A stretch of DNA of 64,000 nucleotides from an uncultured Chlamydiae bacterium. GTDB lineage: Bacteria > Chlamydiota > Chlamydiia > Chlamydiales > JAJFMA01. The position numbers were made by a program, and so were the translations under genes. The stretch lies in the NCBI GenBank assembly GCA_963713615.1, contig CAVQMM010000001.1:2560001-2624000 (forward strand), given 5' to 3'. Below the pieces are notes generated by a model. That model made no database searches and was not told the DNA's origin. It worked only from the letters and a program-made list of their open reading frames with translations. Numbering within the stretch: the stretch's first letter is position 1; each line of letters begins with the position of its first letter. This document shows, in pieces, positions 25,473 to 44,500 of this stretch.

Positions 25473-25939
25473 TCAAAAAAGCAAGTTTACCAAAACCTAT
25501 TGAAATTGCGGTCCTAGGCTACTGCCTTTGGCAAGCTACCGATCTGGTACGCTCTTGGCTTACAGCTCCAGCGGAAAGATGGGCTTGGATCGCTTTTTTT
25601 ATCTGGTGCATTCCTGTCATTTGGTACCTAGCTATCACCATCCAAGAGCAGCAAATCAAACAATCAACGCCTATTCTTCTTGGTGCAGCGATTGTCGTTG
25701 CCCTCGTCGGTGGCTTAGGGTCTCTGAATATCTTGGGACACATCGGATTAGCTCTGGCGTTGGCGGGCATGCTTCCATTTCGCTGGGAAATCCTTGTCTG
25801 GTTAGCCACGGCGCTGTCTTGGTTGCCCAGTTTTGGGTGGATGATTAAAAGTCTTCCCTTTGCAATTATTCCCATCATCCAAATAGGGTTAGCCTTATTC
25901 GGAAGCGCCTTTTTGTTGTACTGTTGGCGGAGGTCCTAA
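25469..25939 (+). CDS. Small multi-TM protein (exosortase-associated)
   Basis: ATGA overlap with the exosortase; Trp-rich, about 5 hydrophobic segments. Confidence 0.7.
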   Translation: MIKKASLPKPIEIAVLGYCLWQATDLVRSWLTAPAERWAWIAFFIWCIPVIWYLAITIQEQQIKQSTPILLGAAIVVALVGGLGSLNILGHIGLALALAGMLPFRWEILVWLATALSWLPSFGWMIKSLPFAIIPIIQIGLALFGSAFLLYCWRRS

Positions 25940-26622
25940 TATGCAACAGACCGGTCGTACAATAGCACTATGGATAGGGCTAGCTGTGGCGGTAGTCCTG
26001 GGGCTTCTATGGCAATTCGCACCTTTAACAGACGCCAAGAGCAGGCTGCAGGCCCTTCCCTTGAATGGCCCTAGTTTTATTGGTCAAGATATCGCTCTTT
26101 CCGATTGGGAAAAAGGCTATTTTAAAAATGTCAATGTTCTCAAACGCGTCTACACCATCGGTAAGAAGACGTTGTTTGTCACAGCGTTAGATGGAACGCT
26201 AAATCGCCACGTGGTTCACGATCCCCTATATTGCTTCCGAGGCAGTGGCTATGAGGTCGCTAGCGAAAAAACTATCGATCTGCCAGATGGTGGCTCCGTC
26301 GCTTTCTTAAAGTTGATTAAGAACAATTCAGAACAAGATGCCATGTATTGGTTCACAAATGGCCAGACAACGTACGATAGCCCCTTACGCTATTGGTGGC
26401 AGGCAACTCTGCGACGCCTCACGCTAGGCATGTCTGGGAAAGAGCCCATTTTGATCGTCGTTCAGCCCATTGACGACCACCCTCTCGACTGGAAAGAGGT
26501 CGTGCACTACTTCCCTCAGCTTCTCACGCTATAAAAAGCTTCACAAACGCTCTAGGCTTATCTTTCAATGCTTTAAGATCTCACAATCGTGTTGAATCGT
26601 TTTCTTCGTTTTGTAAATGTCC
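25534..26622 (+). repeat. Left copy of ~1.09-kb direct repeat (partner 39724-40812)
   Basis: Base-by-base match at offset 14190; only four differences seen in the core (25849, 25876, 26099, 26439), more at the edges. Confidence 0.95.
25941..26534 (+). CDS. Exosortase-associated EpsI-like protein
   Basis: N-terminal TM, HDPLYCFRGSGY (H.P..C..G.G motif), YWF; downstream of the exosortase. Confidence 0.75.
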   Translation: MQQTGRTIALWIGLAVAVVLGLLWQFAPLTDAKSRLQALPLNGPSFIGQDIALSDWEKGYFKNVNVLKRVYTIGKKTLFVTALDGTLNRHVVHDPLYCFRGSGYEVASEKTIDLPDGGSVAFLKLIKNNSEQDAMYWFTNGQTTYDSPLRYWWQATLRRLTLGMSGKEPILIVVQPIDDHPLDWKEVVHYFPQLLTL

Positions 26623-26678
26623 ATAATTTCCATAAAGTCCATTTATACTGTGGCGAGAATGCACAACATGGACACTAT

Positions 26679-27004
26679 GAGGTAATTGCAAAATTATTTG
26701 AGCCCTTAAGGATCGATTCTTAGGAAAAAAGGTTACCCTCTTTTGCGAGAAGGCGACGCTATAAAGCTCAGATGGCATGCCACCATCTAGTCTGGAAAGA
26801 CAGGCTTTTCTCCCCTCCCAGGCCCGAAGGGTCGATATTGCAACAGGCCATGGCATCGCCATGGTATATGCCAAAACTGTTTTAGCAGCCTGTAGGGCTG
26901 CCATAAAGCGCATGCATAAATGGTGTGTGTAAGCCGACGCCTTATGGCATCCCTACGAGGCTGCTAAATCCATTTCTGACATATACCGTGGCGATGCATG
27001 GCCA
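26679..27004. mobile_element. Truncated family A MITE-like copy abutting the CRISPR array
   Basis: Starts GAGGTAATTGCAAAATT after ...ACAACATGGACACTAT; the second arm is degenerate and ends at the first CRISPR repeat. Confidence 0.8.
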
Positions 27005-27007
27005 AAT

Positions 27008-29085
27008 GTTTCAATCCACGCCCCTGCGTGAGGGGCGACGCCTTAAAGGCGAGCAAAAGGCGAACGCTATCATGTTTCAATCCACGCCCCTGCGTGAGGG
27101 GCGACGGCATGGTCAACTTGCGAGAAGACCAATCGTTAGTTTCAATCCACGCCCCTGCGTGAGGGGCGACCATGACTCCAGAGCAAATTATTAGTGAAGT
27201 GGCTGTTTCAATCCACGCCCCTGCGTGAGGGGCGACATAGCAGCCGAACAACTAGGTCGCAAATGCACCGGTTTCAATCCACGCCCCTGCGTGAGGGGCG
27301 ACGGTAGCACCTTGGACCTGTGCGTTTCTAAAGGCTGTTTCAATCCACGCCCCTGCGTGAGGGGCGACCAGCTAGTAACTGGCTCTGGACAGGGACAAAC
27401 ACGTTTCAATCCACGCCCCTGCGTGAGGGGCGACCTTGTGTGCTAAGAATCCCGAAGTTGGGTTGGGGGTTTCAATCCACGCCCCTGCGTGAGGGGCGAC
27501 TTTGTGTTAACCTACCGGCTTTGCGAATCCATAGTTTCAATCCACGCCCCTGCGTGAGGGGCGACTTTGAGCCGTTGGTAAATGCGTATACCTATCGTGG
27601 TTTCAATCCACGCCCCTGCGTGAGGGGCGACGTAACTAAGTAACAAGCAAGCAAGGAATAAGTAGTTTCAATCCACGCCCCTGCGTGAGGGGCGACAAAC
27701 GAGCACGGTGAAGCGTGCAATATTGGTCAACGTTTCAATCCACGCCCCTGCGTGAGGGGCGACCCAGCGTTTCGCGCAATTCATCGTCCATGTAATGTTT
27801 CAATCCACGCCCCTGCGTGAGGGGCGACGTGTGAAGCGAATTTGTTGCGCAAAGTGTCCACTTGTTTCAATCCACGCCCCTGCGTGAGGGGCGACGTAAA
27901 TACTGGTTGACCACATTACCCTTCCTATGTTTCAATCCACGCCCCTGCGTGAGGGGCGACGTGACGGCTTCTGGGGACCTGTCCACAGCAGCGAGTTTCA
28001 ATCCACGCCCCTGCGTGAGGGGCGACAACGATGTTAGCCTATACATCAGTGCAATAACAGGGCGAGTTTCAATCCACGCCCCTGCGTGAGGGGCGACGCG
28101 GCGTGCTTTGCCGCTTGCCTGGATATCGTGGTTTCAATCCACGCCCCTGCGTGAGGGGCGACGTCCCGATGCTTATTCCCGCTTGGTTGTTACTGGTTTC
28201 AATCCACGCCCCTGCGTGAGGGGCGACACACCGCAGCCACCGCAGCAACTAGCTGCATAGTTTCAATCCACGCCCCTGCGTGAGGGGCGACGCCTTTAGC
28301 CTTGGCCTTTTTGCCAGCGTTTCAAGTGTTTCAATCCACGCCCCTGCGTGAGGGGCGACAAACCAGATAGAGTTTGCCTTTAGCGGGAATGATGTTTCAA
28401 TCCACGCCCCTGCGTGAGGGGCGACCCGCCGCCCCCGCCGCCCCAATTGTGACTGCTTGAGTTTCAATCCACGCCCCTGCGTGAGGGGCGACATGACGGA
28501 AGAGTAGCCGTAAGGCCATTATTGATGTTTCAATCCACGCCCCTGCGTGAGGGGCGACCTACCATTTGTTTTTGCAGGTATGGCCCCATTCCTGTTTCAA
28601 TCCACGCCCCTGCGTGAGGGGCGACGATGTTAGCCTATACATCAGTGCAATAACAGGGTTTCAATCCACGCCCCTGCGTGAGGGGCGACGGAAAAGCCGT
28701 CGGTTCATCTTCGATCCACGAAGTTTCAATCCACGCCCCTGCGTGAGGGGCGACCGTAGCCGCTTGGCCCGCGGGAGCCACTGTCGGGTTTCAATCCACG
28801 CCCCTGCGTGAGGGGCGACTGGGAGCCGATTTTGATCTGTTCCAAACCCTATGGTTTCAATCCACGCCCCTGCGTGAGGGGCGACGCTGCTTTGACGCTC
28901 ACCTTACCAAATGGACCGGTGTTTCAATCCACGCCCCTGCGTGAGGGGCGACCTATGCAGTTGAACTTATGGACGACGACATACGGGTTTCAATCCACGC
29001 CCCTGCGTGAGGGGCGACTCAACATTGAATTCAAAGCGCTCAGTGTCCACGTGGTTTCAATCCACGCCCCTGCGTGAGGGGCGAC
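27008..29085 (-). CRISPR. Type I-C CRISPR array, 32 identical 32-bp repeats (GTCGCCCCTCACGCAGGGGCGTGGATTGAAAC), 31 spacers of 32-39 nt
   Basis: Repeats counted by eye; canonical I-C repeat ending ATTGAAAC on the minus strand; adjacent to cas2. Confidence 0.98.
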
Positions 29086-29300
29086 CGCGAACAGTATAAC
29101 ATACTGAAGTTTAGCTCGGTAGAATTAATCCAGCGCGGATCTGACTTGCCGAAACAACTTAAAGATATTTATTACACCTATGAAAACGGAAATAGTTCAT
29201 TCACAAGGAATAGTGATTTGCGCGAATCTCTCGCGTTTGCTATGGGCAATGTGGGTCCGCGCTCCAGATTCTATACTCTAAAAAAATGGATGCCGCAAGA
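29086..29300 (-). promoter_or_regulatory. CRISPR leader
   Basis: AT-rich non-coding stretch between cas2 and the first transcribed repeat. Confidence 0.75.
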
Positions 29301-29591
29301 TTAGACGATTAATACACCCTCAGGGTCGTAGGAAGGCTTAGCACCTGTATGCTCAACTCTGCGATGCCAATTGTCCCCAAGAAAATAAAACCTCAGACTA
29401 TCCGTTTCTGGGTCTATGGCTTTATATAAGCTATTGGAAACTTTCACCCAAAGTGTAGAATCGATCGAACATTCAAAAACCGAATGTTGCACTCTTTGGC
29501 CATAGTTCACGCAGATTCGAGCTACGCGCCGCAACCTACGCCGACCCGCAGCAGTTTCTGTATTAACATCATAGGTAATCAGGATAAGCAT
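29301..29591 (-). CDS. cas2: CRISPR-associated endoribonuclease Cas2
   Basis: LITYDV...RRLRRVA...YGQRVQHSVFEC...DSLRFY. Confidence 0.96.
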   Translation of the reverse strand: MLILITYDVNTETAAGRRRLRRVARICVNYGQRVQHSVFECSIDSTLWVKVSNSLYKAIDPETDSLRFYFLGDNWHRRVEHTGAKPSYDPEGVLIV

Positions 29592-29605
29592 ATCATTCCC
29601 TAGTA

Positions 29606-30637
29606 TTACTTCCACAGAAATGGAGGATATGCCTCCAAGTCACCTCTAATATAACGAGCCAATAACATAGCCTGAACATGAGGTATTAGGCCGATTGCAA
29701 TTTTCTCGCCTAAAAACGGATGCTCGACTTCTTCTTTCTTTCGGTTTTGATAGGCGACTAAGACTTCCTTTCGTGTTTCATCATTCATGATTACAGCACC
29801 ACTTTCGGACATCTTAAAGCCCCTTCCTTTGATTTGCTGACGATTGACTAATGTTAACGCTACACGATCTGCGAAATGGGGGCGTAGCTCTTCCATTAAA
29901 TCCAAGGCTAGACTGGGCCTTCCTGGACGATCGCGATGTAAAAAACCAACAGCAGGATCCAAACCAACAGTTTCTAATGCAGATGAAACATCATGAGCAA
30001 GCAATGTATAGTAAAAGGAAAGTAGCGCATTCATATTGTCTAGAGGTGGACGTCGCGTCCTTTGTCGAAAGTAAAAGTCCTGTTTCTGCGCTAATATGAG
30101 ATGATCGAAAGCCGAAAAATAGAGCTGCGCAGCTTCTCCCTCCACACCACGCCAAGAATCAACCGTCTGTTCTTCCTTCATTTGCTTTAAGCGATACCCC
30201 ATTGAATCTGCTACCTTCGTAAGTACTTTTGCGGCATCGCTATCATTATGCTCACGCGCAGCTCTCATTAACACCGTACGGCAATTTGCCACCTTACCAT
30301 AAACGATAAGTCTAGCAATTTTAGCACTCGTGACACCACAGTCTGCAAATCTATACTGTTGACGTCGAAGTAGGACATTGCCTGAAACAGGACCTTGCAC
30401 CTTCGCTATGAACCGTCCATACTGACTTAGAAAAGATAACGATACTTTGCTCTCAACACATAACTGCATTAACGGCGGACTACACATAACCTGGCCAATG
30501 CAGACAATTCCCCCTAGAAGATGTATTGGAAATCGACCCTTTGTTTCATCCTTCACACGAATAAGAACTGTTTCCCCGTCTCTACAAAGATATGAACCCT
30601 CTGTTGTCACGAATAGTGTGTTCAATAATTTTTTCAT
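29606..30637 (-). CDS. cas1: Type I-C Cas1
   Basis: MKKLLNTLFVTT, GVEGEAA..YF, RRPPLD..NALLS, GFLH.DRPGR.SLALDLMEE, YPPFLWK. Confidence 0.97.
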   Translation of the reverse strand: MKKLLNTLFVTTEGSYLCRDGETVLIRVKDETKGRFPIHLLGGIVCIGQVMCSPPLMQLCVESKVSLSFLSQYGRFIAKVQGPVSGNVLLRRQQYRFADCGVTSAKIARLIVYGKVANCRTVLMRAAREHNDSDAAKVLTKVADSMGYRLKQMKEEQTVDSWRGVEGEAAQLYFSAFDHLILAQKQDFYFRQRTRRPPLDNMNALLSFYYTLLAHDVSSALETVGLDPAVGFLHRDRPGRPSLALDLMEELRPHFADRVALTLVNRQQIKGRGFKMSESGAVIMNDETRKEVLVAYQNRKKEEVEHPFLGEKIAIGLIPHVQAMLLARYIRGDLEAYPPFLWK

Positions 30638-31341
30638 GGTGCCCTCCAATCGCCTTCTGCCGCTTTCTCTAAGACGTCCATGTACCTTCCCATAGAGGCT
30701 TCCGCTTGGGTGAATCGAGGCATACAGAGCTCAATGAGCGAACAGCGTTTGCATGCTGATTTCCAAACTGCCGGTGGCGTTTTTCGGTTTCGATCAAGTT
30801 CATGTAATCGCAACGCAGCAGCCTCAGTAGTTGCCCTCAAGCAAGCGTTGAGTTCGATTTCTAAGCGTTTACGCGGTTCTCCATAAAATATAGCTCCTAC
30901 TGACAGGCTTGTCTGAAGCATTTCTTCAAGACAGAGAGCCTGAGCACATACCTGTACGCGATCGCAGTCGCTAACCTTGTCTCGGCCTCTTTTATACTCA
31001 ACCGGGACTGGCCGCCAGAGTCCTTCTAGATCCGCCAGTCTTACAGCACCTGCTGCCATGCAGATGTTAGGATCTGAGCCATCAATTCGAATAAACTCCA
31101 CTACATCGGCTTGACCGGTAAGTCCTAAACGCAGACTTCTCAGCCGTAAACCACGGGTGATACGAAGACCATCACGAACTTCCGTAGATGGATCATGTGC
31201 CTTTGCATGTAGCAAATTGCCTTCTGCAGTTAGCTTATTGTCAAGCCACTGCTGTTCCAAATGGATTAAGGCCCATTGACGTTCACAAAACATCAGGTGC
31301 TGCAAAGCGGAGATCGGTAAAAGTTCATCCTCCTGAAACAT
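30634..31341 (-). CDS. cas4: Cas4
   Basis: ISALQH..FCERQWALIH, G.ADVVE, PVEYKRG, C..CSL...C. Confidence 0.95.
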   Translation of the reverse strand: MFQEDELLPISALQHLMFCERQWALIHLEQQWLDNKLTAEGNLLHAKAHDPSTEVRDGLRITRGLRLRSLRLGLTGQADVVEFIRIDGSDPNICMAAGAVRLADLEGLWRPVPVEYKRGRDKVSDCDRVQVCAQALCLEEMLQTSLSVGAIFYGEPRKRLEIELNACLRATTEAAALRLHELDRNRKTPPAVWKSACKRCSLIELCMPRFTQAEASMGRYMDVLEKAAEGDWRAP

Positions 31342-31364
31342 AGCTATATGCCTTGTATGGATAT

Positions 31365-31404
31365 TGACCAAAACGAGATCGACCATTGGATCTCGTTTTG
31401 GTCA
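31365..31404. terminator. Perfect 16-bp stem-loop between cas7 and cas4
   Basis: TGACCAAAACGAGATC-N8-GATCTCGTTTTGGTCA; no clear U-tract. Confidence 0.5.
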
Positions 31405-31430
31405 CGTTGACGTTGATGTCTGCGGATTCT

Positions 31431-32315
31431 CTACATACGTAAAAGTTCTACACCTAAAGGAAGTTCGGTATCGTTAATTTGAATATTATAGTCCTCAAAT
31501 TGACGTACGGACTGAACCTCATTTTTTTGCGCAATGGATATTCTATCGAATAATTTGTGAGCAGGGGCATTACCCAGCTGACTGCCATGTTTGAACACAT
31601 ATAATCCCCTGGTCGACATATGCCCTCTAGCAGCGGAATGATCATGTTCAAACATCTGCAAAAGTGCTTCCCAAAACAAATCAAGATCTTCTTCAGAAAA
31701 GCCTGTTTGTTTTGCTAAAGCTGCAGAAATAAAGCCGTGTGCCCTGTACAGGCCATAGGAAACAGTATGTTTCCTTCCCATAGTACGGTTGTCCCCGTCC
31801 TGTTCTTTGGCCTCTTTTTCTGTGGTAACTGCCATTCTCGTAATGGAATGTTCGATGGGAAATATTGGACTAATAGACCTAGCAAAAGTCAACTGCACAG
31901 GTCCACGAACCTGACCACAGCGTTTATCTTTGTCTCCTGTGCTCATGACAGCGCCAAAAGTTCGGATGTCATAGAAATTTTGACACATCCAATCTCTCGC
32001 TTTGTCCACCTTATTTCTCGGCCCTTCATCTGCTTCTGAGAAAAGCCCTTCGTCCAATGCCTTATGGGCTCGTTCATGTTGATGATTTAAGATGGCTTTT
32101 TCCTTAACGTAAATCTCATAAGGAGGTTTGGGGTTACCCTCCATTTTTAGCCCTATATAATTTCTCACCTTTCGCTTAAGACATACATCTGTTATCAAAC
32201 CACAACCGGTTTCGGAATCTACTCGAGGAGTATTACCTCCATCAGGATCACCATTCGGATTGCCATCTTTAACATCGAATAAAAGTACAAAATCATAACG
32301 ATTGTTTATAGACAT
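31431..32315 (-). CDS. cas7: Type I-C Cas7 (Csd2)
   Basis: [47 protein letters not shown]. Confidence 0.97.
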
Positions 32316-32319
32316 GAAT

Positions 32320-32688
32320 CTATTCTCCTTTATCTTGTATCTTAGCACTTGAGAAAAACTGTTGGCGCTGATGGTAATATCCCAGGGCAAAGCGAGCCTG
32401 TTCTTCTAATCCTAGTTGTGTCGGAAAATCGGTAAGGCCTCCCAGAACACTCCCTAATTGCCTTTCAAATGATATCGCCAAACCCTTATCTAGCTTTGGA
32501 AGATGATGATTTTTCAGATTTAGCAATGTTGGAAAAACGATAGTGGGTCTTGTTGCGGCAGTGCCATAATACCGCTGACGAATGGTTGCATTAATTCCTG
32601 GCAATGCCTTTTCCTGAATACGTTCCAGAACAGCAAACAGTCGCCCTAGTCGATAGCCTGGGTCGTTATTTGTTTCGTCTAGTGACAC
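32320..32688 (-). CDS. cas11: Internally translated small subunit Cas11c
   Basis: In-frame AAGGAG-N6-GTG giving (M)[15 protein letters not shown]..., 122 aa, matching the known hidden Cas11 of type I-C. Confidence 0.7.
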
Positions 32689-34059
32689 TTGAATCTCCTT
32701 ATGTTGAGTTCCTTGAGAACGAACCTGTCGGTTCAAATAGGCTTTTAGCATAGCTGCACGAGGGTACGAGATAGTATGATCATCCCCTCGCTCAGCGCGA
32801 ATACGCGCAAGCACACTCAATAACATTATTCGCGGATAGGCCCCCCCGTCCAATATTGCTTTGATGAGAGCACTCGTTATTGATGGGTGCAGATTGTCTA
32901 GTTTTCCTTGCAACGCGGTTGCTCGAAGCAATGTCATTAAGGAAAGATGATCTGGTTCACGCGTGCCATGAACTATGAAGAGATCATCAAAATGCCTTCT
33001 GATATTGCTAGTGAGCTCCTCTACGGGTAACACCCGCCAAAAACGAATAGCTAACCTGGAAGCATTTGGCGAAAGGCCCAAGATGTAAAAAAGGGTTTTG
33101 TCTTTATTGTTAGCAAGAACTCCTGCATATGGAGCAGCATAAATACTTCTAACAGCAGACGCATTGCGATCAGGATTATCCTTTTCAGGCTCTGCGAATA
33201 AGTCAGCAAAACTTTCCTCCAAATCATGCTTTTGGCCAGCCCAAAATACTACTGAAGTATCTCCATTAATAATGAGCCGTTGACGACTTTCTTTGTCGAG
33301 CAAATGATTTAACGCAGTCGTGTAGGAAAATGCGGCTTCTTTTCCTACGGGTGCATTATGTCCCTGATTCTTTCTAAAAGATCTGAAGGACTCTTGCTGA
33401 AAACTAACGATGTTGGTCCCGCTCGGCTGTCCACCTCTCACTCCTTTGATCGATGGATGAACCCTTTCAATAGGCCCTAGGTTACCTGTCACTAAACATA
33501 GCCCTAGGGGTTCATCCTCTTTATCATCTATTTTTTTTAGAGCATTCCTTACGCATGGAGCTTCACAAACCGGTCTGTTGTAGCCTTGAACGAAAAATGA
33601 AGTATTGGCTTTTTTTAGAGTTAAATCATCCCATAATGAATGAGTTTCTAATTCCGAAAGATTACCCTTCTCCAAAAAAGAAAGAACAGCTGCTATCTCA
33701 TCATCATTGCCTATAAACTCTGCCAGACGTTGAATTCCCTTTATAAAAGCCGTTTGCTTCTTCTTTCCATCGTCTGGCTTGTCAGAAGCAATGCCCAACA
33801 CCCACTGCGCATTATCCCACAGAAGGTTTGGCAGTAATTGGGTGGAAGTACGCTTTACTCCTTTGGGAACCAGAAAACGCTTTGGAATAGACTTCTGTCC
33901 TTTCTTCTCACGAGTATCATGAATGTCAACGAAGTAACCATCTCTACTCAGAACTATAAGAAAAGGAATTTCCTTCCATTCCAAACCTGGAGGGGCAATG
34001 CCACTATCCGGATCAGCAGCCTTGCGATTATAGTAGTCGTAGAGTGCCTGCAAAATCAT
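32320..34059 (-). CDS. cas8c: Type I-C Cas8c (Csd1)
   Basis: [45 protein letters not shown]. Confidence 0.96.
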
Positions 34060-34721
34060 CCTCTTACCTCTGGGCTGTTGGGTGATGGAACCAACAATAC
34101 TCCCTTGTCTAACGTAGCTCTAAAAAACAAGGGTCGAATATTGTCTGGATCCGAGTAGTTTAGATCATAGAGCATCCATCCAAGATCACGTGACTCGTCA
34201 ATAGGTTCAGGAAGGTCATTGCGATGGTCAAGCAACTCAAAAGAAGCCGCGAATTCACGGCAACCGAGATAAGGTTGATTGAAGCATTGACCATTGTTAG
34301 CCCTACGACGAAACATTTCCGAGAACTTTTGTGTGGTGTTTTCAGGCTTAGCTTGTGAATCAATGTCAAACCTTCCATGAATCAGATAGGCGACATCCCT
34401 CAGTAGCAGGGAGGCTCGCTGTTGTCTGTCTTCTTCAATGTATTGTCCTAGAGACCCTACCCCTCGAGTCATGGCAGTACGTACAGTTCCTCTGGGAATA
34501 ACACTCCCGACTTCATTGCGAAGCACTGACAACCACTTAATGGGATTTAAAATCTCAATCTTGGTAATTCGCCATCGAATTGCGGGTTTCCACAAAACTG
34601 CCTCAAAGATACTCCTGGCCGCAGAAGGGGTCATTATGTCATATGACACCCGTTCTGCCTTCATCTCCGGTCGGGTGAAGCAGGCAAGATCTCCCCATAC
34701 CTTTAAACAAAATTCATTCAC
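34056..34721 (-). CDS. cas5: Type I-C Cas5
   Basis: GDLACFTRPEMKAERVSYD..TPSAAR, QPYLGCREF, DLGWMLYD. Confidence 0.97.
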   Translation of the reverse strand: MNEFCLKVWGDLACFTRPEMKAERVSYDIMTPSAARSIFEAVLWKPAIRWRITKIEILNPIKWLSVLRNEVGSVIPRGTVRTAMTRGVGSLGQYIEEDRQQRASLLLRDVAYLIHGRFDIDSQAKPENTTQKFSEMFRRRANNGQCFNQPYLGCREFAASFELLDHRNDLPEPIDESRDLGWMLYDLNYSDPDNIRPLFFRATLDKGVLLVPSPNSPEVRG

Positions 34722-34732
34722 TGATTTCCCTC

Positions 34733-36994
34733 CTAACAGATAAAAACTTCTGGCTCTTGGTAATGTTCGTCACCTCCCAAAAAGCCCAACTCGTGGTGAT
34801 AAAGCCCCTCAACCTGTGCAAAGTACCCAGGACTCGCAGGTCGAAGTTCTTGAATCTTCTTCTCAGATAAAAGTTGTAGAAACAAACCACGCGGAATATT
34901 TACGGAATATCGTTGTAGTCGGCGCAACACATCTCTGCTTGGACCACCGTCGAAAAGGGCCTTAATCCGCTCCTGAGCATCACCATAATGCACAAAAACC
35001 GAAGCCTGGCTGGAGTCGTCGATGAGTTTGAATTTCTCAGCAGCAGTTCGAAATTGAAACTCTAGATCTCTCGACTCAAGGTCATCCAAGATTCTCTCGG
35101 AATCAAAGTCATTTATGGATGAATAAAACTGTTGAAAGTAGCTGCTTATAGACTCTGGATGAAGAGGGTCTGCCTTGTTCGTTTGGAGCATTTGCCGGGC
35201 TATGGTTTCTCCCTTTCTAAGGATCCCCTGTGAAGCTGGCTTGGGAGGAATAAAAACTACGACCTTTCCCAAATCAAGGCGACCCTCACGATTGCATCGA
35301 CCTGCAGCCTGAGTGATGGAATCAATGCCTGCCAAGGCTCGGTATACAACTGGAAAGTCGAGATCAACGCCTGCTTCCACTAGTTGGGTGCTAATCACCC
35401 TAATAGGCTCACCAGCCTTTAATTTTTGCTTGATTTCACTAATGACATCGGAACGATGCTGCCCACACATGAGCGCTGAAAGATGGTACGTGCCTACTGG
35501 CATGAGTCTGAATAGTTCTCTACAATCATCTCGGCGATTAACAATGCACAATACCGAAGGATAAATTTGCAGCTCCTGTGCAATGTCCTCCCATGAACGT
35601 TTTTCGGATAGGGAGTCGGGTACCTGCACCCGAACTCTTTTCAGCTTGTCATACAGCAAATGCGGTTCATCAATAATTTCCCGTACATTCCTGAGTCCTT
35701 GGAACCGTCTCCCATGTTGAATACGCTCCACAAATTCTGGCTGGGTGGCGGTACAGAGAACCGCTGTCATGTTGTAGTAATCACTCAGAGCCTGTAGCAT
35801 TTTATTGATGGGTCCCAAAAATTTTGTTTCCAGGAGTTGGACTTCATCCAGAATCACTACGCTATTAACGATGTTATGTAACTTACGAGTGCGACTCGAA
35901 CGTGCTGCAAACAGGGATTCAAAAAATTGAACATTCGTAGTTACTATGATAGGAGCATCCCAGTTTTCACTAGCAAGACGACTCTGCGTTGTTTCCTTTT
36001 CTGAATCGAAATTGCTATGATGTTCTACAACGGCATCTCCAAAAATAGATCTAAACTCGTTAGCTGTCTGTTCAATGATGCTTGTGTAAGGAATCACATA
36101 AATAATGCGCCGCTTGCCATGCATAAGGGCATGGTTTAAGGCAAAGGCCATACTAGATAGTGTTTTACCACCTCCTGTCGGTACGGACAGAGAAAATATT
36201 CCCGACTCCCACTCCGCAGCCTGCTTGCAACGTTTTAAGACTGCTGCTCGAAGCTGATTCAATGGGTTTGACTCAACTTTTTGCAGCTTATTGGCCATAA
36301 AGGTTGAGAATTTCACCTCAAGCTCACTTAGAGATGGATACCCCCCACGCAGAGCATTCCTTTCAGCGTTCATGAAAGATTCAGTATCCAGAAAGTCCGC
36401 ATCAACTAAGCAGGAGAACAACATACGAATCCACAGAGCATGCGCATCGCACCCTGGTGGCTTCGAAACAGGAACAGGTAAGTCGTCGGACAATCGAACT
36501 TGATCTAAGCAACAAACCCTATCATACAAAGATGTGTTGGAGATTCGCGTAGAGAGTGAACTTGCACCCGCTTTTTCTGAATTCCAGTCCGGTAAACCTG
36601 CGTGGTGCCCTGCTATTAAATAGGCAATAATCTGACCACGTTTTTTGAGCTTCTCTATAGAGTGAATTGCTCCTGCTGTAGAATGATCCACGCGCCCCTT
36701 TTGTTGTTCAAGGTGCGCCTCGGAATCATACCCACTCTTACTCTTGATGTAATTTTGAAATTCAGATGAATATTTGCCCAAGTCATGCCATAGGCCAGCT
36801 AAAAAGGCCCAATCACCGCAACCAAATTCATCGGCAAAGTTCTTGGCGAGGTGTGCTACACTGCGTAGGTGATCGCCTAATTCATGCGTTTGCCAAGCTC
36901 CGTTTTTTCCTAAACAAACATGGGCCAAGTAACATTGGGATTTTTTGTTATCATCTAGCGCTCTCCTATCCATCCTTATCTCCTCATCATCCAA
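34733..36994 (-). CDS. cas3: Cas3 HD nuclease-helicase
   Basis: HDLGK, HHAGL, LVDADFLDT, VPTGGGKT, DEVQ, STQLVEAGVD, QAAGRCNREG; start uncertain. Confidence 0.96.
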   Translation of the reverse strand: MDDEEIRMDRRALDDNKKSQCYLAHVCLGKNGAWQTHELGDHLRSVAHLAKNFADEFGCGDWAFLAGLWHDLGKYSSEFQNYIKSKSGYDSEAHLEQQKGRVDHSTAGAIHSIEKLKKRGQIIAYLIAGHHAGLPDWNSEKAGASSLSTRISNTSLYDRVCCLDQVRLSDDLPVPVSKPPGCDAHALWIRMLFSCLVDADFLDTESFMNAERNALRGGYPSLSELEVKFSTFMANKLQKVESNPLNQLRAAVLKRCKQAAEWESGIFSLSVPTGGGKTLSSMAFALNHALMHGKRRIIYVIPYTSIIEQTANEFRSIFGDAVVEHHSNFDSEKETTQSRLASENWDAPIIVTTNVQFFESLFAARSSRTRKLHNIVNSVVILDEVQLLETKFLGPINKMLQALSDYYNMTAVLCTATQPEFVERIQHGRRFQGLRNVREIIDEPHLLYDKLKRVRVQVPDSLSEKRSWEDIAQELQIYPSVLCIVNRRDDCRELFRLMPVGTYHLSALMCGQHRSDVISEIKQKLKAGEPIRVISTQLVEAGVDLDFPVVYRALAGIDSITQAAGRCNREGRLDLGKVVVFIPPKPASQGILRKGETIARQMLQTNKADPLHPESISSYFQQFYSSINDFDSERILDDLESRDLEFQFRTAAEKFKLIDDSSQASVFVHYGDAQERIKALFDGGPSRDVLRRLQRYSVNIPRGLFLQLLSEKKIQELRPASPGYFAQVEGLYHHELGFLGGDEHYQEPEVFIC

Positions 36995-37186
36995 CGATTT
37001 GGATCAAACGTCCATGGAATTTACCAACATTACCCTTATTTATCAAGACTAAAGATAATGAATTAATTATTCTACATACAGTCTATAGTTAATCTTATAT
37101 TTTTTAGTTATGCTTGTTGAGCTGTTGTGTCAGAGACTATCAACAAACGCAAAATACTCTCACGTCTGACCAAACTTGAGATTATG

Positions 37187-37346
37187 GGCCTTGTTCACCT
37201 TTACGGTCAGAATTTCGGTCGGACGAAAAAGGTCGGATGTCGTGGTTTGTGACGAGGGCATAGCGCCAGCTATGTCCGAGGAGCAAAACGCGACAGACGA
37301 TCCTTTTGCAGTCGACCGAAAACTGACCGCAAAGGTGAATAAGGCC
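37187..37346. repeat. Palindromic intergenic element (family D)
   Basis: GGCCTTGTTCACCTTTACGGTCAG...CTGACCGCAAAGGTGAATAAGGCC long imperfect inverted repeat. Confidence 0.7.
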
Positions 37347-37419
37347 AGATTATGCATCGAAGAGATAAGATAGAGAACGGGCAACAGATACCCAGGCTAG
37401 CCTAAGGTAAACAGAACTT

Positions 37420-39183
37420 TTATACATTCGTTGCAGCGGACTGCTCAGGGTTAAAATAGATTTTCCAATGAATTTGATTCACCAAGTCTTGTTCGTCATA
37501 AGTCAATGGGGATTTGACCACACCAGTCACATGGTAAGAACGAAGGTGATTCTCTATTAAGGATAGATTTAATTTGTCACACTTTCTCAAATAGCGAGCA
37601 ATGTCTACAGCGCGTTCAACAATCGCCTTTCTGTAATTATCCTCTATTTTTTTTAAATAATCATTACTTTTAACATAACCCAAATCCAGTTGATTTATTT
37701 TTAAATCAAATTCACTATTGTTTTTAATATCGATCAATCCGACAATTGCCCTCAAATAAATACACTTATCTAAGGAGGTCTCGAATCCGTAAGCCAAAGT
37801 GGGATGGATAAGGATTTCTCTTGTCTCCCCTAATTGCATCCCTTTAACTCCTAAAGCCAGTCCAGGAATTGTATTTTTTAAATTAATAACAACGTTAGCC
37901 TCTGTGGCTAGACAATGACCCATCGGTGAAAAGATGCTATAACTTAGTGAAACATGGCATCCTTTGCATTTGACGTCTCCATTTCCACTTTTAATCATTC
38001 GATAGCTAAGTTTCGCAGGAATAACTGTACGGTAATTTGAATCTAGCTTCAATCTTTCAAAAAGTTCGTCTGCCTCTTGCAGGTTAGCCTTGGCTTCCAA
38101 AAATGTTCTTCTATATGCAGGAAATCGAGCCAGTCGGTCTCCACTACCTTGGCTTTCTGTCGCTTTTAATCCTTCAAAAAAGTAAGGCAAATAGTCGGAA
38201 TCATATGTCTGTATTGCTTCCCAAACAGCCTTTGCCATTACCTCATTGATATCGTGTTGTGTGATGAAAGAATCGGAGTTATTTTTTCGAAACGTATGGT
38301 TTTTTTTTCCAAACTTTTGAAGGATTTCCTCTAATGAGAGGGATGACAAAAGGGATTTATTAATTAAATCTTGAGTGTTTTCCAGTTCAGAGATAATTTT
38401 TCGAGAATTGTCTGAACTCTTTACCCAGCCAAAGACAAATTGAGGGGTTTGTGTGATCAATTTGGTCGAAGATGTCGTCGTTTGACTCTGAAGCGTATTT
38501 ATTTCATCGCCAATGGACTTAAAGCTAAAGCTAGGAGAAAATGGCAAAAACTCTTCGTTGTAGTCCTGTCGTATTAACGAGGCTGACTGGAAAGGAGGAA
38601 CATCTTCATCCATAGCCTCTTGAATATTTTCCTTACGAGCAATGTACAATGAATTCTGTTCACCATAACCCAGAAGCTTTCCGATTAGAACTTTGTCTCC
38701 CTTAAGCAGGGAATAAAACGTTTGCCGATTAGATAGTAAGGCATCTAAAAGAGCTTGAGAGGTCACTGCAGGACCCAAGACGTATTGAAATAGTGGTAGG
38801 CTTTCGTTGACAACTTGGTGAAAAAGTGGAATGTTGATCACAAGAACATGGATATAGCCCGGTATGCGGGGATCTTCCCTATTGCAAATGTGAATGATCA
38901 CGTCGGAAGGTGAATCTACTAGATCCTTCCATATACCAGCCCCAGCTCTCAAAGCGGTTGATTGCCTGTGAGTGGTGGAATTAACAGGTAGAGGGTCTTT
39001 GGAGAAGTATCCTTCAACACATACAGGTTTTTTGTTTAAAACTGCATAACCCGACTCGGAATGTTCTAGAAGGGTTTCAACAAAGACCTTTAAAACAGCT
39101 TGCTGTGTTAAAGAAAGATCATATGTTTCCCCGATACAAATTGTCCTTGCCAATATGAAAAATATCATTAAGAAACGAAACAT
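37420..39183 (-). CDS. Secreted protein with a C-terminal FKBP-type PPIase-like domain
   Basis: Signal peptide; TIPGLALGVKGMQLGETREILIHPTLAYG; visibly AT-rich. Confidence 0.7.
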   Translation of the reverse strand: MFRFLMIFFILARTICIGETYDLSLTQQAVLKVFVETLLEHSESGYAVLNKKPVCVEGYFSKDPLPVNSTTHRQSTALRAGAGIWKDLVDSPSDVIIHICNREDPRIPGYIHVLVINIPLFHQVVNESLPLFQYVLGPAVTSQALLDALLSNRQTFYSLLKGDKVLIGKLLGYGEQNSLYIARKENIQEAMDEDVPPFQSASLIRQDYNEEFLPFSPSFSFKSIGDEINTLQSQTTTSSTKLITQTPQFVFGWVKSSDNSRKIISELENTQDLINKSLLSSLSLEEILQKFGKKNHTFRKNNSDSFITQHDINEVMAKAVWEAIQTYDSDYLPYFFEGLKATESQGSGDRLARFPAYRRTFLEAKANLQEADELFERLKLDSNYRTVIPAKLSYRMIKSGNGDVKCKGCHVSLSYSIFSPMGHCLATEANVVINLKNTIPGLALGVKGMQLGETREILIHPTLAYGFETSLDKCIYLRAIVGLIDIKNNSEFDLKINQLDLGYVKSNDYLKKIEDNYRKAIVERAVDIARYLRKCDKLNLSLIENHLRSYHVTGVVKSPLTYDEQDLVNQIHWKIYFNPEQSAATNV

Positions 39184-39270
39184 AGTTTAAAAAATCAAAG
39201 TCCATTTAGCATTACATTCATTTTTTGTTTAAAACGGCACAAAACTTCGCCGTAACCTAAGACAAAGCCT

Positions 39271-39639
39271 TTAAGGCCAAGCTACACAATTACAATGATA
39301 AGGACAGTCCCTCACAACGCAACCCCAGCAGCGTGTGCACCACACTCGATGCCCCATGCGACATCGATCGGTAATTGAGTCTATCATTAAATCTTCAATG
39401 AGACAATATATCCCATTTCTATCCCAGGCGATTTTTTCCGCAAAAACTCGCGCTCCATCAACAAAAAAATAGAGACCTTCATCGGTGATCCATAGTTGAG
39501 TGGGATCAAGATAGATCTTTTTATCAATAATTTTATATTCCTCTGCAAATCGAGCAAGAGGAATTTTGTCGATAGTCGGTGTACCAAAAATAGGGCAGAA
39601 CAGCACGTTAAGCAGGCAGAGGAGAATATTTTTTTTCAC
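39271..39639 (-). CDS. Small secreted protein with a Cys/His-rich C-terminus
   Basis: Signal peptide; CRMGH...CTRCWGC....CPYHCNC. Confidence 0.65.
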   Translation of the reverse strand: MKKNILLCLLNVLFCPIFGTPTIDKIPLARFAEEYKIIDKKIYLDPTQLWITDEGLYFFVDGARVFAEKIAWDRNGIYCLIEDLMIDSITDRCRMGHRVWCTRCWGCVVRDCPYHCNCVAWP

Positions 39640-39723
39640 AACAAACCCTCGCTAGTCCAATAAAAACATATATATATATAAAACACTTTCTTTAAGAGCA
39701 CGCAAAAAGTCGGATTTGGTCAC

Positions 39724-40129
39724 AGTTACCGATCCGGTATGCTCTTGGCTTACGGCTCCAGCGGAAAGATGGGCTTGGATCGCTTTTTTTATCTGGTGCA
39801 TTCCTGTCATTTGGTACCTAGCTATCACCATCCAAGAGCAGCAAATCAAACAATCAACGCCTATTCTTCTTGGTGCAGCGATTGTCGTTGCCCTCGTCGG
39901 TGGCTTAGGGTCTCTGAATATCTTGGGACACATCGGATTAGCTCTGGCGTTGGCGGGCATGCTTCCATTTCGCTGGGAAATCCTTGTCTGGTTAGCCACG
40001 GCGCTGTCTTGGTTGCCCAGTTTTGGGTGGATGATTAAGAGTCTTCCCTTTGCAATTATTCCCATAATCCAAATAGGGTTAGCCTTATTCGGAAGCGCCT
40101 TTTTGTTGTACTGTTGGCGGAGGTCCTAA
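39724..40129 (+). pseudogene. 5'-truncated duplicate of the 25469-25939 membrane protein gene
   Basis: Identical protein from SWLTAPAERW onward; lacks the first ~22 codons. Confidence 0.8.
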
Positions 40130-40130
40130 T

Positions 40131-40724
40131 ATGCAACAGACCGGTCGTACAATAGCACTATGGATAGGGCTAGCTGTGGCGGTAGTCCTGGGGCTTCTAT
40201 GGCAATTCGCACCTTTAACAGACGCCAAGAGCAGGCTGCAGGCCCTTCCCTTGAATGGCCCTAGTTTTATTGGTCAAGATATCGCTCTCTCCGATTGGGA
40301 AAAAGGCTATTTTAAAAATGTCAATGTTCTCAAACGCGTCTACACCATCGGTAAGAAGACGTTGTTTGTCACAGCGTTAGATGGAACGCTAAATCGCCAC
40401 GTGGTTCACGATCCCCTATATTGCTTCCGAGGCAGTGGCTATGAGGTCGCTAGCGAAAAAACTATCGATCTGCCAGATGGTGGCTCCGTCGCTTTCTTAA
40501 AGTTGATTAAGAACAATTCAGAACAAGATGCCATGTATTGGTTCACAAATGGCCAGACAACGTACGATAGCCCCTTACGCTATTGGTGGCAGGCAACTCT
40601 GCGACGCCTCACGCTAGGCATGTCTGGGGAAGAGCCCATTTTGATCGTCGTTCAGCCCATTGACGACCACCCTCTCGACTGGAAAGAGGTCGTGCACTAC
40701 TTCCCTCAGCTTCTCACGCTATAA
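40131..40724 (+). CDS. Second copy of the EpsI-like protein
   Basis: 197 aa, identical to 25941-26534 except one K->E change (GMSGEEP). Confidence 0.8.
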   Translation: MQQTGRTIALWIGLAVAVVLGLLWQFAPLTDAKSRLQALPLNGPSFIGQDIALSDWEKGYFKNVNVLKRVYTIGKKTLFVTALDGTLNRHVVHDPLYCFRGSGYEVASEKTIDLPDGGSVAFLKLIKNNSEQDAMYWFTNGQTTYDSPLRYWWQATLRRLTLGMSGEEPILIVVQPIDDHPLDWKEVVHYFPQLLTL

Positions 40725-40816
40725 AAAGCTTCACAAACGCTCTAGGCCTATTTTTCAATGCTTAAGGACCTCACAATCGTGTTGAATCGTTTTCTTTGTT
40801 TTGTAAATGTCCCTAG

Positions 40817-43362
40817 GAGGTAATTGCAAAATTATTTGAGCCTTTAAGGATAGATTCTTAGGAAAAAAGGTTACCTTTTTTTGTGAGAAGGCGATTCTGG
40901 AAAGCTCAAATGGCATGGCACTATCTAGTCTGGAAAGACAGGCTTTTCTCCCCTCCCAGGCCCGAAGGGTCGATATTGCAACAGGCCATGGCATCGCCAT
41001 GGTATATGCCAAAACGGTTTTAGCAGCCTGTAGGGCTGCCATAAAACGTCAGTATTCACACGCTATTTATACAAGCGCCTTATGGCAGCCCTACAGGCTG
41101 CGAAATCCCTTCCTGGCATATACCATGGCGATGCCATGGCCTGTTGCAATATCGACCCTTCGGGCCTGCGAAGGGAATGGCTCTCTCTTCACCGGCATCC
41201 GATTTTCAGGAAATTGACTTCGGAAAATCGGACTTCTGCAATTACCTCCTATGGACAACATGAACACTATGAGGTAATTGCAAAATTATTTGAGCCCTTA
41301 AGGATCGATTCTTAGGAAAAAAAGGTTACCTTTTTTTTGCGAGAAGGCGGTTCTGGAGAGCTCAGATGGCATGCCACTATCTCGTCTGGAAAGACAGGCT
41401 TTTCTCCCCTCCCAGGCCCGAAGGGTCGATATTGCAACAGGCCATGGCATCGCCATGGTATATGCCAAAACGGTTTTAGCAGCCTGTAGGGCTGCCATAA
41501 AACGTCAGTATTCACACGCTATTTATACAAGCGCCTTATGGCAGCCCTACAGGCTGCGAAATCCCTTCCTGGCATATACCATGGCGATGCCATGGCCTGT
41601 TGCAATATCGACCCTTCGGGCCTGGGAAGGGAATGGCTCTCTCTTCACCGGCATCCGATTTTCAGGAAATTGACTTCGGAAAATCGGACTTCTGCAATTA
41701 CCTCCTATGGACAACATCAACACTATGAGGTAATTGCAAAATTATTTGAGCCCTTAAGGATCGATTCTTAGGAAAAAAAGGTTACCTTTTTTTGTGAGAA
41801 GGCGACGCTATAAAGCTCAGATGGCATGCCACCATCTAGTCTGGAAAGACAGGCTTTTCTCCCCTCCCAGGCCCGAAGGGTCGATATTGCAACAGGCCAT
41901 GGCATCGCCATGGTATATGCCAAAACGGTTTTAGCAGCCTGTAGGGCTGCCATAAAACGTCAGTATTCACACGCTATTTATACAAGCGCCTTATGGCAGC
42001 CCTACAGGCTGCGAAATCCCTTCCTGGCATATACCATGGCGATGCCATGGCCTGTTGCAATATCGACCCTTCGGGCCTGGGAAGGGAATGGCTCTCTCTT
42101 CACCGGCATCCGATTTTCAGGAAATTGACTTCGGAAAATCGGACTTCTGCAATTACCTCCTATGGACAACATGGACACTATGAGGTAATTGCAAAATTAT
42201 TTGAGCCCTTAAGGATCGATTCTTAGGAAAAAAAGGTTACCTTTTTTTGTGAGAAGGCGACGCTATAAAGCTCAGATGGCATGCCACCATCTAGTCTGGA
42301 AAGACAGGCTTTTCTCCCCTCCCAGGCCCGAAGGGTCGATATTGCAACAGGCCATGGCATCGCCATGGTATATGCCAAAACGGTTTTAGCAGCCTGTAGG
42401 GCTGCCATAAAACGTCAGTATTCACACGCTATTTATACAAGCGCCTTATGGCAGCCCTACAGGCTGCGAAATCCCTTCCGGCCTGGGAAGGGAATGGCTC
42501 TCTCTTCACCGGCATCCGATTTTCAGGAAATTGACTTCGGAAAATCGGACTTCTGCAATTACCTCCTATGGACAACATGGACACTATGAGGTAATTGCAA
42601 AATTATTTGAGCCCTTAAGGATCGATTCTTAGGAAAAAAAGGTTACCCTCTTTTGTGAGAAGGCGACGCTATAAAGCTCAGATGGCATGCCACCATCTAG
42701 TCTGGAAAGACAGGCTTTTCTCCCCTCCCAGGCCCGAAGGGTCGATATTGCAACAGGCCATGGCATCGCCATGGTATATGCCAAAACGGTTTTAGCAGCC
42801 TGTAGGGCTGCCATAAAACGTCAGTATTCACACGCTATTTATACAAGCGCCTTATGGCAGCCCTACAGGCTGCGAAATCCCTTCCTGGCATATACCATGG
42901 CGATGCCATGGCCTGTTGCAATATCGACCCTTCGGGCCTGGGAAGGGAATGGCTCTCTCTTCACCGGCATCCGATTTTCAGGAAATTGACTTCGGAAAAT
43001 CGGACTTCTGCAATTACCTCCTATGGACAACATGGACACTATGAGGTAATTGCAAAATTATTTGAGCCCTTAAGGATCGATTCTTAGGAAAAAAGGTTAC
43101 CCTCTTTTGCGAGAAGGCGACGCTATAAAGCTCAGATGGCATGCCACCATCTAGTCTGGAAAGACAGGCTTTTCTCCCCTCCCAGGCCCGAAGGGTCGAT
43201 ATTGCAACAAGCCATGGCATCGCCATGGTATATGCCAAGACGGTTTTAGCAGCCTGTAGGGCTGCCATAAAACGTCAGTATTCACACGCTATTTATACAA
43301 GCGCCTTATGGCAGCCCTACAGGCTGCGAAACCCCTTCCTGGCATATACCATGGCGATGCCA
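40817..43362. mobile_element. Head-to-tail tandem array of six family A MITE-like units
   Basis: Units start at 40817, 41271, 41727, 42182 (internal ~49-bp deletion), 42588 and 43043 (truncated); joined by 22-bp linkers CTATGGACAACAT(GG/GA/CA)ACACTAT. Confidence 0.9.
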
Positions 43363-43454
43363 CATAGGCCTCAACCTAACAAGCCCTTTGGGCTTATGTT
43401 TCAATGCTTTAAGGCTTTCTAGGCAACTCAAAAGGTTGGCTGGCGCAATTTCCT

Positions 43455-43482
43455 ATGTGGCGCAGTCATTCCATGACTGCGA
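43455..43482. repeat. Short REP-like hairpin (family E)
   Basis: ATGTGGCGCAGTCATTCCATGACTGCGA, identical at 52617-52644. Confidence 0.7.
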
Positions 43483-43546
43483 ACAATCCGTTGCAATTGA
43501 GTTACTTGGAAGCCCTCGGTGGTGGAGAAGATCGCAAACCCTCAGA

Positions 43547-44500
43547 TTATTCTCTTACCTTGCGCTCAAAGAAGGCCACTGTGGTGTAATCAGAGATATG
43601 CTGAACCGCCAGGGTCCATGAACCTTCTACAGGGATTTGTTCCCAGTTCCTACTTCGCTCCTCAAAGAAGGAACTCTCTGCCATAACATATAAATCTGCA
43701 CCCTCAGAAGTCTCCACTCCAGCATAAATTAAATAGTTACCCGCAAAACACTGGAGGGCTATGGTCGCTACAGGACCACATGCATGAGTTGGCTTTGGTG
43801 GCCAAGCGAGAAGCAAAACGTCTTTCGAATCAGCTCTTTGCAAATGCTCGACAAAGTCGTCTTCTGTAGTATGATCAAAAAAGCTCTCTTCTTTGCTATA
43901 TGCCCCTGCCTTCTCATAGCCCTGCACGTTAATTCCATTTTGCTCAAGAAAACAAGCCACATATCCACGTCCACAACCAACATCATGAACAACATTAGCG
44001 GAATCTTTGCTAACCTGAGGAAAAGTACTCAAAATTGCAACAGGAAGTCCTCTGCCAGGCTTAAACCAGGAATTTCCACCATAGCTACCAACCAACCTAG
44101 GAAGCTGCCCGCGTTGCTCTGCAGTAGGCTCGACTTCCGGATTTTTATTGATGTTTGGAAATAATAATCCTGCCATCAAGTCTTTATAATATGCAACCCG
44201 TTCGGTTTCTGGATTGGGCTTCATCCCTGGATGTTCTATGTTATATGGATAGATAGCATCCTTAAAAACCATATTGAGAACTTCATAGTTTAACGAATTC
44301 AATTTTCCATAAGTGTATAGTTCAAAAACCTGCTTTATTGCATTATTATAACAAATTTTTTCGCTGTCATTTAAAACGGTTTCGAGAATTTTTGCATAAA
44401 AAACCATTGCGTTCATAACGGATTTACGATTATGTTGTAAATCTCCAGTTCTTACATTTCCCGGAACAATTTCTATGTTATTAAAACCAAGTTCCATCAC
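43547..44500 (-). CDS. Class I SAM-dependent methyltransferase-like protein
   Basis: HDVGCGRGY motif I, LLLAWPP; AT-rich. Confidence 0.65.
   Translation of the reverse strand: MMELGFNNIEIVPGNVRTGDLQHNRKSVMNAMVFYAKILETVLNDSEKICYNNAIKQVFELYTYGKLNSLNYEVLNMVFKDAIYPYNIEHPGMKPNPETERVAYYKDLMAGLLFPNINKNPEVEPTAEQRGQLPRLVGSYGGNSWFKPGRGLPVAILSTFPQVSKDSANVVHDVGCGRGYVACFLEQNGINVQGYEKAGAYSKEESFFDHTTEDDFVEHLQRADSKDVLLLAWPPKPTHACGPVATIALQCFAGNYLIYAGVETSEGADLYVMAESSFFEERSRNWEQIPVEGSWTLAVQHISDYTTVAFFERKVRE

Follow-up and report, generated by a model that had tools for sequence, protein, structure and literature searches.

The window, a stretch of 64,000 nucleotides from an uncultured Chlamydiae bacterium (contig CAVQMM010000001.1, positions 2,560,001 to 2,624,000), contains a type I-C CRISPR array of 32 exact repeats and 31 spacers on the minus strand (27008-29085). 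The genes cas2, cas1, cas4, cas7, cas8c, cas5c and cas3 (29301-36994, minus strand; type I-C) were recognised with Pfam and NCBIfam models, and all are open frames. Because they lie on the far side of the array, position 27008 is its leader-distal end. Together with a 587-aa gene of 38.5% GC that carries an FKBP domain (37420-39183, minus strand; Pfam), the array and the cas operon form a 12.7-kb island, which sits between two copies of a ~1.5-kb segment.

The left copy of this direct duplication (25534-27003, plus strand) comprises the 3' part of a 156-aa ORF, a DUF3485 gene, intergenic DNA and a truncated copy of a multi-copy element, element A. The right copy (39724-41150, plus strand) was delimited by BLAST of 25534-27015 against 39724-41150. 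The copies differ at 4 of 949 coding nucleotides, 3 of them within the first 46, and at 6 of 88 intergenic nucleotides. Alignment places the right island junction, where the sequence enters the second copy inside the 156-aa ORF, at 39716-39760 (plus strand). Assembled contigs from seven runs were compared with the locus, X1 being possibly the source sample and hence not independent; a 151-nt X6 contig (39607-39757) bridges the right junction without a difference.

The relatives G001, G003 and G004 carry the segment once, with the DUF3485 gene followed directly by a phosphodiesterase gene, which here lies at 44643. Neither cas1 nor the element was found in any of five close relatives, and of 401 genomes of the phylum, this one included, four have cas1 at E≤1e-40. 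The exact repeat occurs at 59 loci in named unrelated genomes and in 76 metagenome stretches. Of 133 loci with this repeat, none has a spacer, leader or element in common with the window, so that neither a donor nor a sister array was found among them. Since the segment is single in relatives, cas1 is rare and the repeat occurs in unrelated genomes, this lineage most likely gained the island horizontally, and two novel joins bound it.

No further copy of the repeat was found elsewhere in the genome at up to 6 mismatches. The spacers match nowhere else in their own genome beyond chance hits of 14-19 nt, and there is therefore no canonical self-targeting of the element. Spacers 16 (39 nt; 28027-28065) and 25 (32 nt; 28626-28657) share one protospacer, the shorter nested in the longer, a pattern that points to repeated, imprecise acquisition. 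The FKBP domain of the low-GC gene is weak; two homologues with 65% identity lie at different loci in G003, and no close one was found in G001, G002 or G004. Between cas3 and this gene lies a ~165-bp multi-copy palindromic repeat (37180-37350) with at least 39 other matches, an exact piece of which is contained in X6. A 317-aa ORF (43547-44500) separates the tandem copies of element A from the phosphodiesterase gene; it had no Pfam or NCBIfam match, and none was found in four relatives. Promoter and terminator scans gave chance-level results, and Rfam at the gathering threshold gave no match in 26400-44000.

Junction of the array with the truncated element

Positions 26990-27003 read GGCGATGCATGGCC and are followed by AAA (27004-27006), T (27007) and the first repeat, GTTTCAATCCAC..., at 27008-27039; the initial annotation had described the junction accurately. 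Intact units of element A read GGCGATGCCATGGCC-TGTTGCAATATCGACCCTTCGGG / GGCGATGCCATGGCC-TGTTGCAAT in the alignment. The junction (27004-27015, plus strand) thus consists of AAA and TGTTTCAAT, the latter agreeing with the element's TGTTGCAAT at 8 of 9 positions with an offset of 3 nt, and the first repeat lies no more than 3 nt from register with the element's GTTGCAAT. Position 27008 is at the same time the left edge of the island, a point that was absent from the initial annotation, as were the duplication and the decayed right arm of the element. A literature search gave no report of a fusion, at such a repeat-like motif, between a CRISPR array and a MITE or REP, most subscription papers being outside its coverage.

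It had also been put forward that the leader-distal repeat is perfect rather than degenerate. The repeat is exact, and a degenerate repeat sought one period beyond 27008 was absent. As an argument, however, this is weak, as a perfect repeat is found at 27 of 41 distinct distal ends of arrays with the exact repeat (21 of 41 when ends with partial repeats further out are scored as degenerate; 30 of 56 before de-duplication), counted among those of the 133 loci with at least three exact copies and 150 nt of flank and with orientation assumed from the sense of the repeat. Type I-C terminal repeats are on average more mutated, at 55 versus 4 per 1000 nt, in one survey (PMC12839519). The perfect terminal repeat is consistent with truncation and is no proof of it.

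The right arm of the truncated element (26940-27003, minus strand) is decayed and is cut immediately ahead of its own linker motif. Over 70 nt it lies 10 events from the nearest other arm, which makes it the second most divergent of 189 arms; the left arm lies 1 event away. Its many private changes include two 1-nt indels, and its centre shares letters with hairpin units beside a Y1 transposase gene elsewhere in the genome.

A repeat-rich metagenome assembly could have joined a copy of the element to the array via the short match, or have produced a faulty consensus in the last 50 nt. The ~130 near-identical copies of the element, the hairpin with its 97-bp arms and the divergence of the very arm beside the join would all fit such an artefact. 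However, an X1 contig matches 26900-26959 exactly, private letters included, other contigs match 26512-26662 and spacer 3, the intergenic allele of the left copy is present in both X1 and X6, and the other island junction is bridged. Moreover, noise would not explain why the centre of the variant arm keeps letters that it has in common with the Y1-flanking units. Among the matches listed from the seven runs, no contig extends over 26960-27038, so the join, with the final ~50 nt up to the first repeat, is neither confirmed nor contradicted by them; a 28-nt pattern of the variant arm had no match in JGI metagenomes. An artefact seems to us quite improbable, and we take the junction for a real sequence feature, probably with an ordinary cause.

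Element A and its hairpin arms

Element A is ~430 bp long and non-coding, without a transposase ORF, and has the imperfect terminal inverted repeat (TIR) GAGGTAATTGCA at both ends. Genome-wide, 134 left and 130 right ends were found, corresponding to ~130 copies. The truncated copy (26679-27003, plus strand) has its left TIR at 26679 and lacks the outer right arm and the right end; its left half differs from the unit at 43043 at 3 of 227 nucleotides. Six tandem copies occupy 40817-43362 (plus strand), the last of which ends at an insertion hot spot, where the left end of a nested element, element B, follows at 43363. Of 97 end pairs, 34 span 420-440 bp and 28 span 740-760 bp, the latter with element B inside.

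The initial annotation called the element a MITE, a name that suits its outer shell. Like a MITE, that is, a non-autonomous IS derivative, it is short, non-coding and multi-copy, with TIRs and a 4-bp target-site duplication: identical 4-nt flanks were found in 21 of 62 full-length copies, and 5 more are off by one base. It differs in the unlike flanks of 35 of the 62 copies, which presumably reflect shuffling by recombination, in its nested elements, and in that no cognate or autonomous transposase was found among 13 multi-copy ORF families or TIR pairs, nor any plasmid match. The arms, in contrast to the shell, belong to a hairpin repeat linked to a Y1 transposase. Two shell matches, in G249 and G354, are short and look like chance. 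The MITE is almost always inserted in short 9-bp-period repeats with GGAC/GTCC (156-185, 597-612, 26660-26678, 41250-41270), and unequal exchange at these repeats appears to be the way in which its tandem arrays, of 6 copies here and 5-9 elsewhere, expand.

The core of element A is a hairpin with arms near 100 bp (97-bp arms; z=-20), and the shell contains a doublet of an ~86-nt three-hairpin unit. The left arm of the truncated copy is one such unit (26822-26906, plus strand), made up of hairpin 1, a linker with ATTGCAAC (26837-26844), hairpin 2 and hairpin 3, and it matches the units beside the Y1 gene as well as those in other genomes. The motif that resembles the end of the CRISPR repeat is thus the linker between hairpins 1 and 2. 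A search of 400 genomes, which left out G044, gave arm matches in 10 others; in 8 of these genomes the ~86-nt arm is matched, with 71-82% identity. The motif ATTGCAAC is conserved in G216, G400, G365 and G191 and variable in G015, G281 and G167.

Fourteen three-hairpin units at 3243845-3248958 lie beside a Y1 transposase gene (G000:C1:3243391-3243843; L186:1480-1932), and no arms were found beside the 4-5 other Y1 loci of the same genome. The three closest homologues of this gene (57-63%; G216, G167 and G191) are flanked by the same units, in genomes in which Cas1 was likewise not found, and seven more distant homologue loci were without arms. The protein has HVH and YIRNQRQHH (Y---Q--HH) motifs; it scores above the cut-off of the IS200 model NF033573 (57.6 vs 55) and below that of the REP transposase model NF047646 (22.4 vs 80). 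Neither a relative of the Y1 protein nor a match to the arm pattern was found in viral contigs.

The sequence Y---Q--HH is the signature of TnpA-Y1 subclass 1.2 (PMC6006769), and by this motif and its IS200-like core the gene is a putative subclass-1.2-type Y1 (HUH) transposase. It also agrees with the subclass, as described by Quentin et al. (2018; PMC6006769), in being present here in a single copy with arms per genome. In their account subclass 1.2 is generally without typical terminal IS200 structures, whereas the gene here and those in three other genomes are flanked by ~86-nt three-hairpin units, and a doublet without the gene lies in the MITE. These flanking units are one more case against the published view of the subclass as generally lacking terminal structures.

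The arrangement resembles the REPtron/BIME/REPIN system (PMC8266576) in that palindromic units are arrayed next to a Y1 gene, with inverted doublets of variable linker, also in tandem and genome-wide. It differs in that the units are ~86 nt with three hairpins, as compared to 20-50 nt for REPs, that the protein fails the REP transposase model, and that most doublets here are in a TIR/TSD shell, so that they were likely moved by a DDE enzyme. The Y1-flanking array of 14 units is likely the source of the doublet inside the MITE, which a DDE-type shell would have captured. Among Rfam families, Acido-Lenti-1 (RF01687) showed a weak match to hairpin 2, linker and hairpin 1 of the G216 Y1-flanking units (L190:1404-1449, 1996-2041; E=0.0049, 26.7 bits, below the gathering score of 37), but the Y1 locus of the present genome had no match to it at E≤1.

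The arms are themselves sites of insertion. In 84 of 273 arms, element B (310 bp; 16-bp TIR starting CATAGG; 43363-43430 and G000:C1:789230-789539) is inserted at one and the same position of hairpin 2, which lies 7 nt upstream of the linker motif, and the insertion goes with an 11-bp duplication. Ten copies of 2612 bp contain an IS66 transposase (Pfam) and four of ~2.2 kb a DDE_Tnp_1 transposase, which gives a four-level nest. The hairpin repeat has a second site-specific invader: six arms (G000:C1:2060004 and five others; L202) are split, all at one base of the hairpin 1 loop, by a different element that has a 398-aa ORF present in 9 copies and is putatively IS110-like. A MITE that carries a doublet of a subclass-1.2 Y1 hairpin repeat has thus spread to ~130 sites and become a landing pad for further elements, and this composite is a more interesting by-product of the analysis than the junction itself.

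Resemblance of the arm to the CRISPR repeat

The initial annotation ascribed repeat architecture to the arm, and offered, beside microhomology, a join made by Cas1-Cas2 at a repeat-like site or, more speculatively, a role of the element as a source of decoys. The layout of hairpin and motif, CCCTTC-N8-GAAGGG-TCGAT-ATTGCAAC, can indeed be read on the minus strand in right arms that are intact; the left arm of the truncated copy has CCCCTC (26812-26844). The likeness to the repeat, in contrast, is at chance level. Arm and repeat agree at 15 of 32 positions in register and at 17 of 32 at best, a score equalled by 39.5% of 1000 dinucleotide shuffles, and local alignment of element and repeat gave p=0.093. 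The pairing probability of the "repeat-like" stem in the full element was 0.0 on both strands, and the stem is predicted to be sequestered in the long hairpin. The 6-bp stem moreover depends on bases that belong to the MITE shell, and the Y1-flanking units lack it.

An action of Cas1-Cas2, in which the arm took the place of a repeat or of a long prespacer, would be in keeping with an array that begins exactly at a repeat border and with an arm in which a possible 6-bp stem is followed by a terminal ATTGCAAC. CRISPR spacer integration occurs at the leader end, however, whereas the junction is at the distal end. Of the 273 arms, 186 run through the motif, 84 have element B nested in them and 3 do neither (the junction, a 1-nt insertion and an internal deletion). 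A single arm of the 273 is broken at the motif, which is therefore no hot spot. No same-orientation pair of motifs closer than 150 nt was found among 357 matches, and thus there are no neo-arrays. Similarly, instead of a neo-CRISPR or a product of off-target integration, the array has 32 canonical repeats that are common to unrelated genomes. The motif also occurs in genomes in which no Cas1 was found (0 of 5 tested, from the 8 arm-bearing genomes, which are 79-99% complete). These results do not bear out a join by Cas1-Cas2.

The stronger form of this idea, in which the arms mimic the repeat and so divert Cas5c or Cascade as decoys, could appeal to two reports. The Cas5c substrate has a 7-nt stem, a 5-nt loop and an 11-nt tail, with UGG after the cut, and S. 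mutans Cas5c tolerates changes downstream of the cut (PMC8524198). Racrs, repeat mimics found by alignment to known repeats, are known for type I-C (PMC10651486). The arm, however, would have a 6-bp stem, an 8-nt loop and a 13-nt tail starting UCG, a geometry unlike that of the substrate. It shares with RNA anti-CRISPRs and solitary repeat units the status of a repeat look-alike outside an array (PMC10651486), but Racrs as described there match known repeats over most of their length and are borne by phages or plasmids, whereas the arm is at chance level, chromosomal and within a long hairpin. On the present numbers, an alignment of the kind used for Racrs would probably pass the arm by. With the likeness at chance and the stem sequestered, the decoy role is not supported, and we consider any part of Cas1-Cas2 or of repeat mimicry in the join highly improbable. 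The repeat likeness of the element most likely stems from an unrelated family of transposase-linked hairpin repeats. Short ATTG(C/A)AAC matches beside hairpins are common and should not be taken as evidence of repeat mimicry.

The junction might also matter for what the array expresses. For Cas12a it has been shown that sequence downstream of a perfect terminal repeat can give rise to an extraneous crRNA (PMC6610086), and by analogy the same might apply to type I-C. Cas5c processing of the terminal repeat would then give a guide against the ~270 chromosomal arms, and either selection for escape from self-targeting would account for AAA and the other changes in the first 34 nt, or Cascade would use the guide to police the MITE. 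If so, the array would have gained a guide against a resident transposon by rearrangement instead of spacer acquisition, a route to anti-transposon guides that dispenses with Cas1-Cas2. The 34 nt after the terminal repeat match 139 sites at 24 of 34 positions and 2 sites at 25 of 34, ungapped, with 3 of the first 4 bases mismatched, and the PAM position at these sites is GCA, not TTC, the type I-C PAM (PMC8406640). A clean join would have given a full match to the arms, yet the PAM position would then have been taken by AAC, the end of the repeat itself. As this should already be non-permissive, selection against self-targeting is possible but not needed. Such a guide strikes us as a far-fetched prospect.

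Origin of the join

The join probably arose by ordinary short-homology (microhomology) recombination between the end of the repeat (TGTTTCAAT) and the linker of the element (TGTTGCAAT), through a template switch or a later deletion and with no need of a Cas protein. A microhomology origin, one of those offered in the initial annotation, is supported by two observations. First, a random breakpoint in the element would seldom come as near to the register, 14 of 788 (1.8%) being no more than 3 nt away, which makes a short-homology join likely, although 1.8% is only modest for a post-hoc pattern from a genome-wide scan. Second, internal deletions elsewhere among the copies of the element commonly involve short homology, with identity of 7/9 or better at the breakpoints of 5 of 13, as compared to ~1% of random ones; placement of the deletions against the best reference copy is noisy, and the remaining 8 show little homology. 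A check on whether the match is expected by chance gave a divided answer: a 7/8 site for the first 8 bases of the repeat is common, occurring in 19.8% of 5000 shuffled elements on the given strand and in 35.6% on either strand, whereas the position is rare. The position of the join is thus modestly beyond chance, and the presence of the motif in the element is not.

The AAA speaks against a clean join. It parts the match from the last element-like base, and the crossover does not lie cleanly within the homology. After a homology-independent break, the element would end at 27003, AAAT would be left over from a spacer now lost or from the old flank of the island, and the 8/9 match would be coincidental; a 7/8 site is common enough in shuffled elements, and 1.8% of breakpoints come near it. 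Moreover, 5 of the 13 internal deletions are without any perfect homology. Nevertheless, 98% of random breakpoints are further from the register, and a later 3-nt insertion is plausible in an arm so full of private changes, its two 1-nt indels included. We consider such a break unlikely.

Alternatively, the subclass-1.2 Y1 (HUH) transposase may have cut the hairpin repeat at its linker and transferred the strand to the look-alike in the CRISPR repeat. The genome encodes such a gene beside a unit array, and in vitro the TnpA-REP protein of E. coli cuts REPs in single-stranded form and recombines them (PMC8266576). Against this, the linker motif is broken in only one arm, the linker is internal to the unit, and hairpin 1 is outermost around the gene, so that we rate the transposase a very improbable agent. 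To our knowledge, no cleavage site is known for subclass 1.2.

The CRISPR-cas island most likely entered horizontally, and a short-homology join could have come about by either of two courses. A template switch from the palindrome arm into the repeat, and then back to the chromosome 1.5 kb upstream, would have produced the island and the duplication in one event. Otherwise, a later deletion would have taken the right end of the element together with the former distal end of the array. The AAA may be a later insertion in the changed arm or what remains of the end of a spacer since lost. As no sister strain was found that still has the state before the junction, the order of events is a reconstruction. 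The junction would accordingly be an example of a CRISPR-cas island that landed in a repeat-rich genome and lost its distal end.

Exchange through the palindrome is recorded in seven left-left and two right-right hybrids of element A. Spontaneous bacterial rearrangements with microhomology at their junctions have been documented (PMC3411829), and the present case resembles them in its short match at the join and in an island with two novel joins and a direct duplication. It differs in that the 8/9 match with its 3-nt offset is shorter and less clean than the 8-12-bp cut-offs given there, and in that one partner here is a CRISPR repeat.
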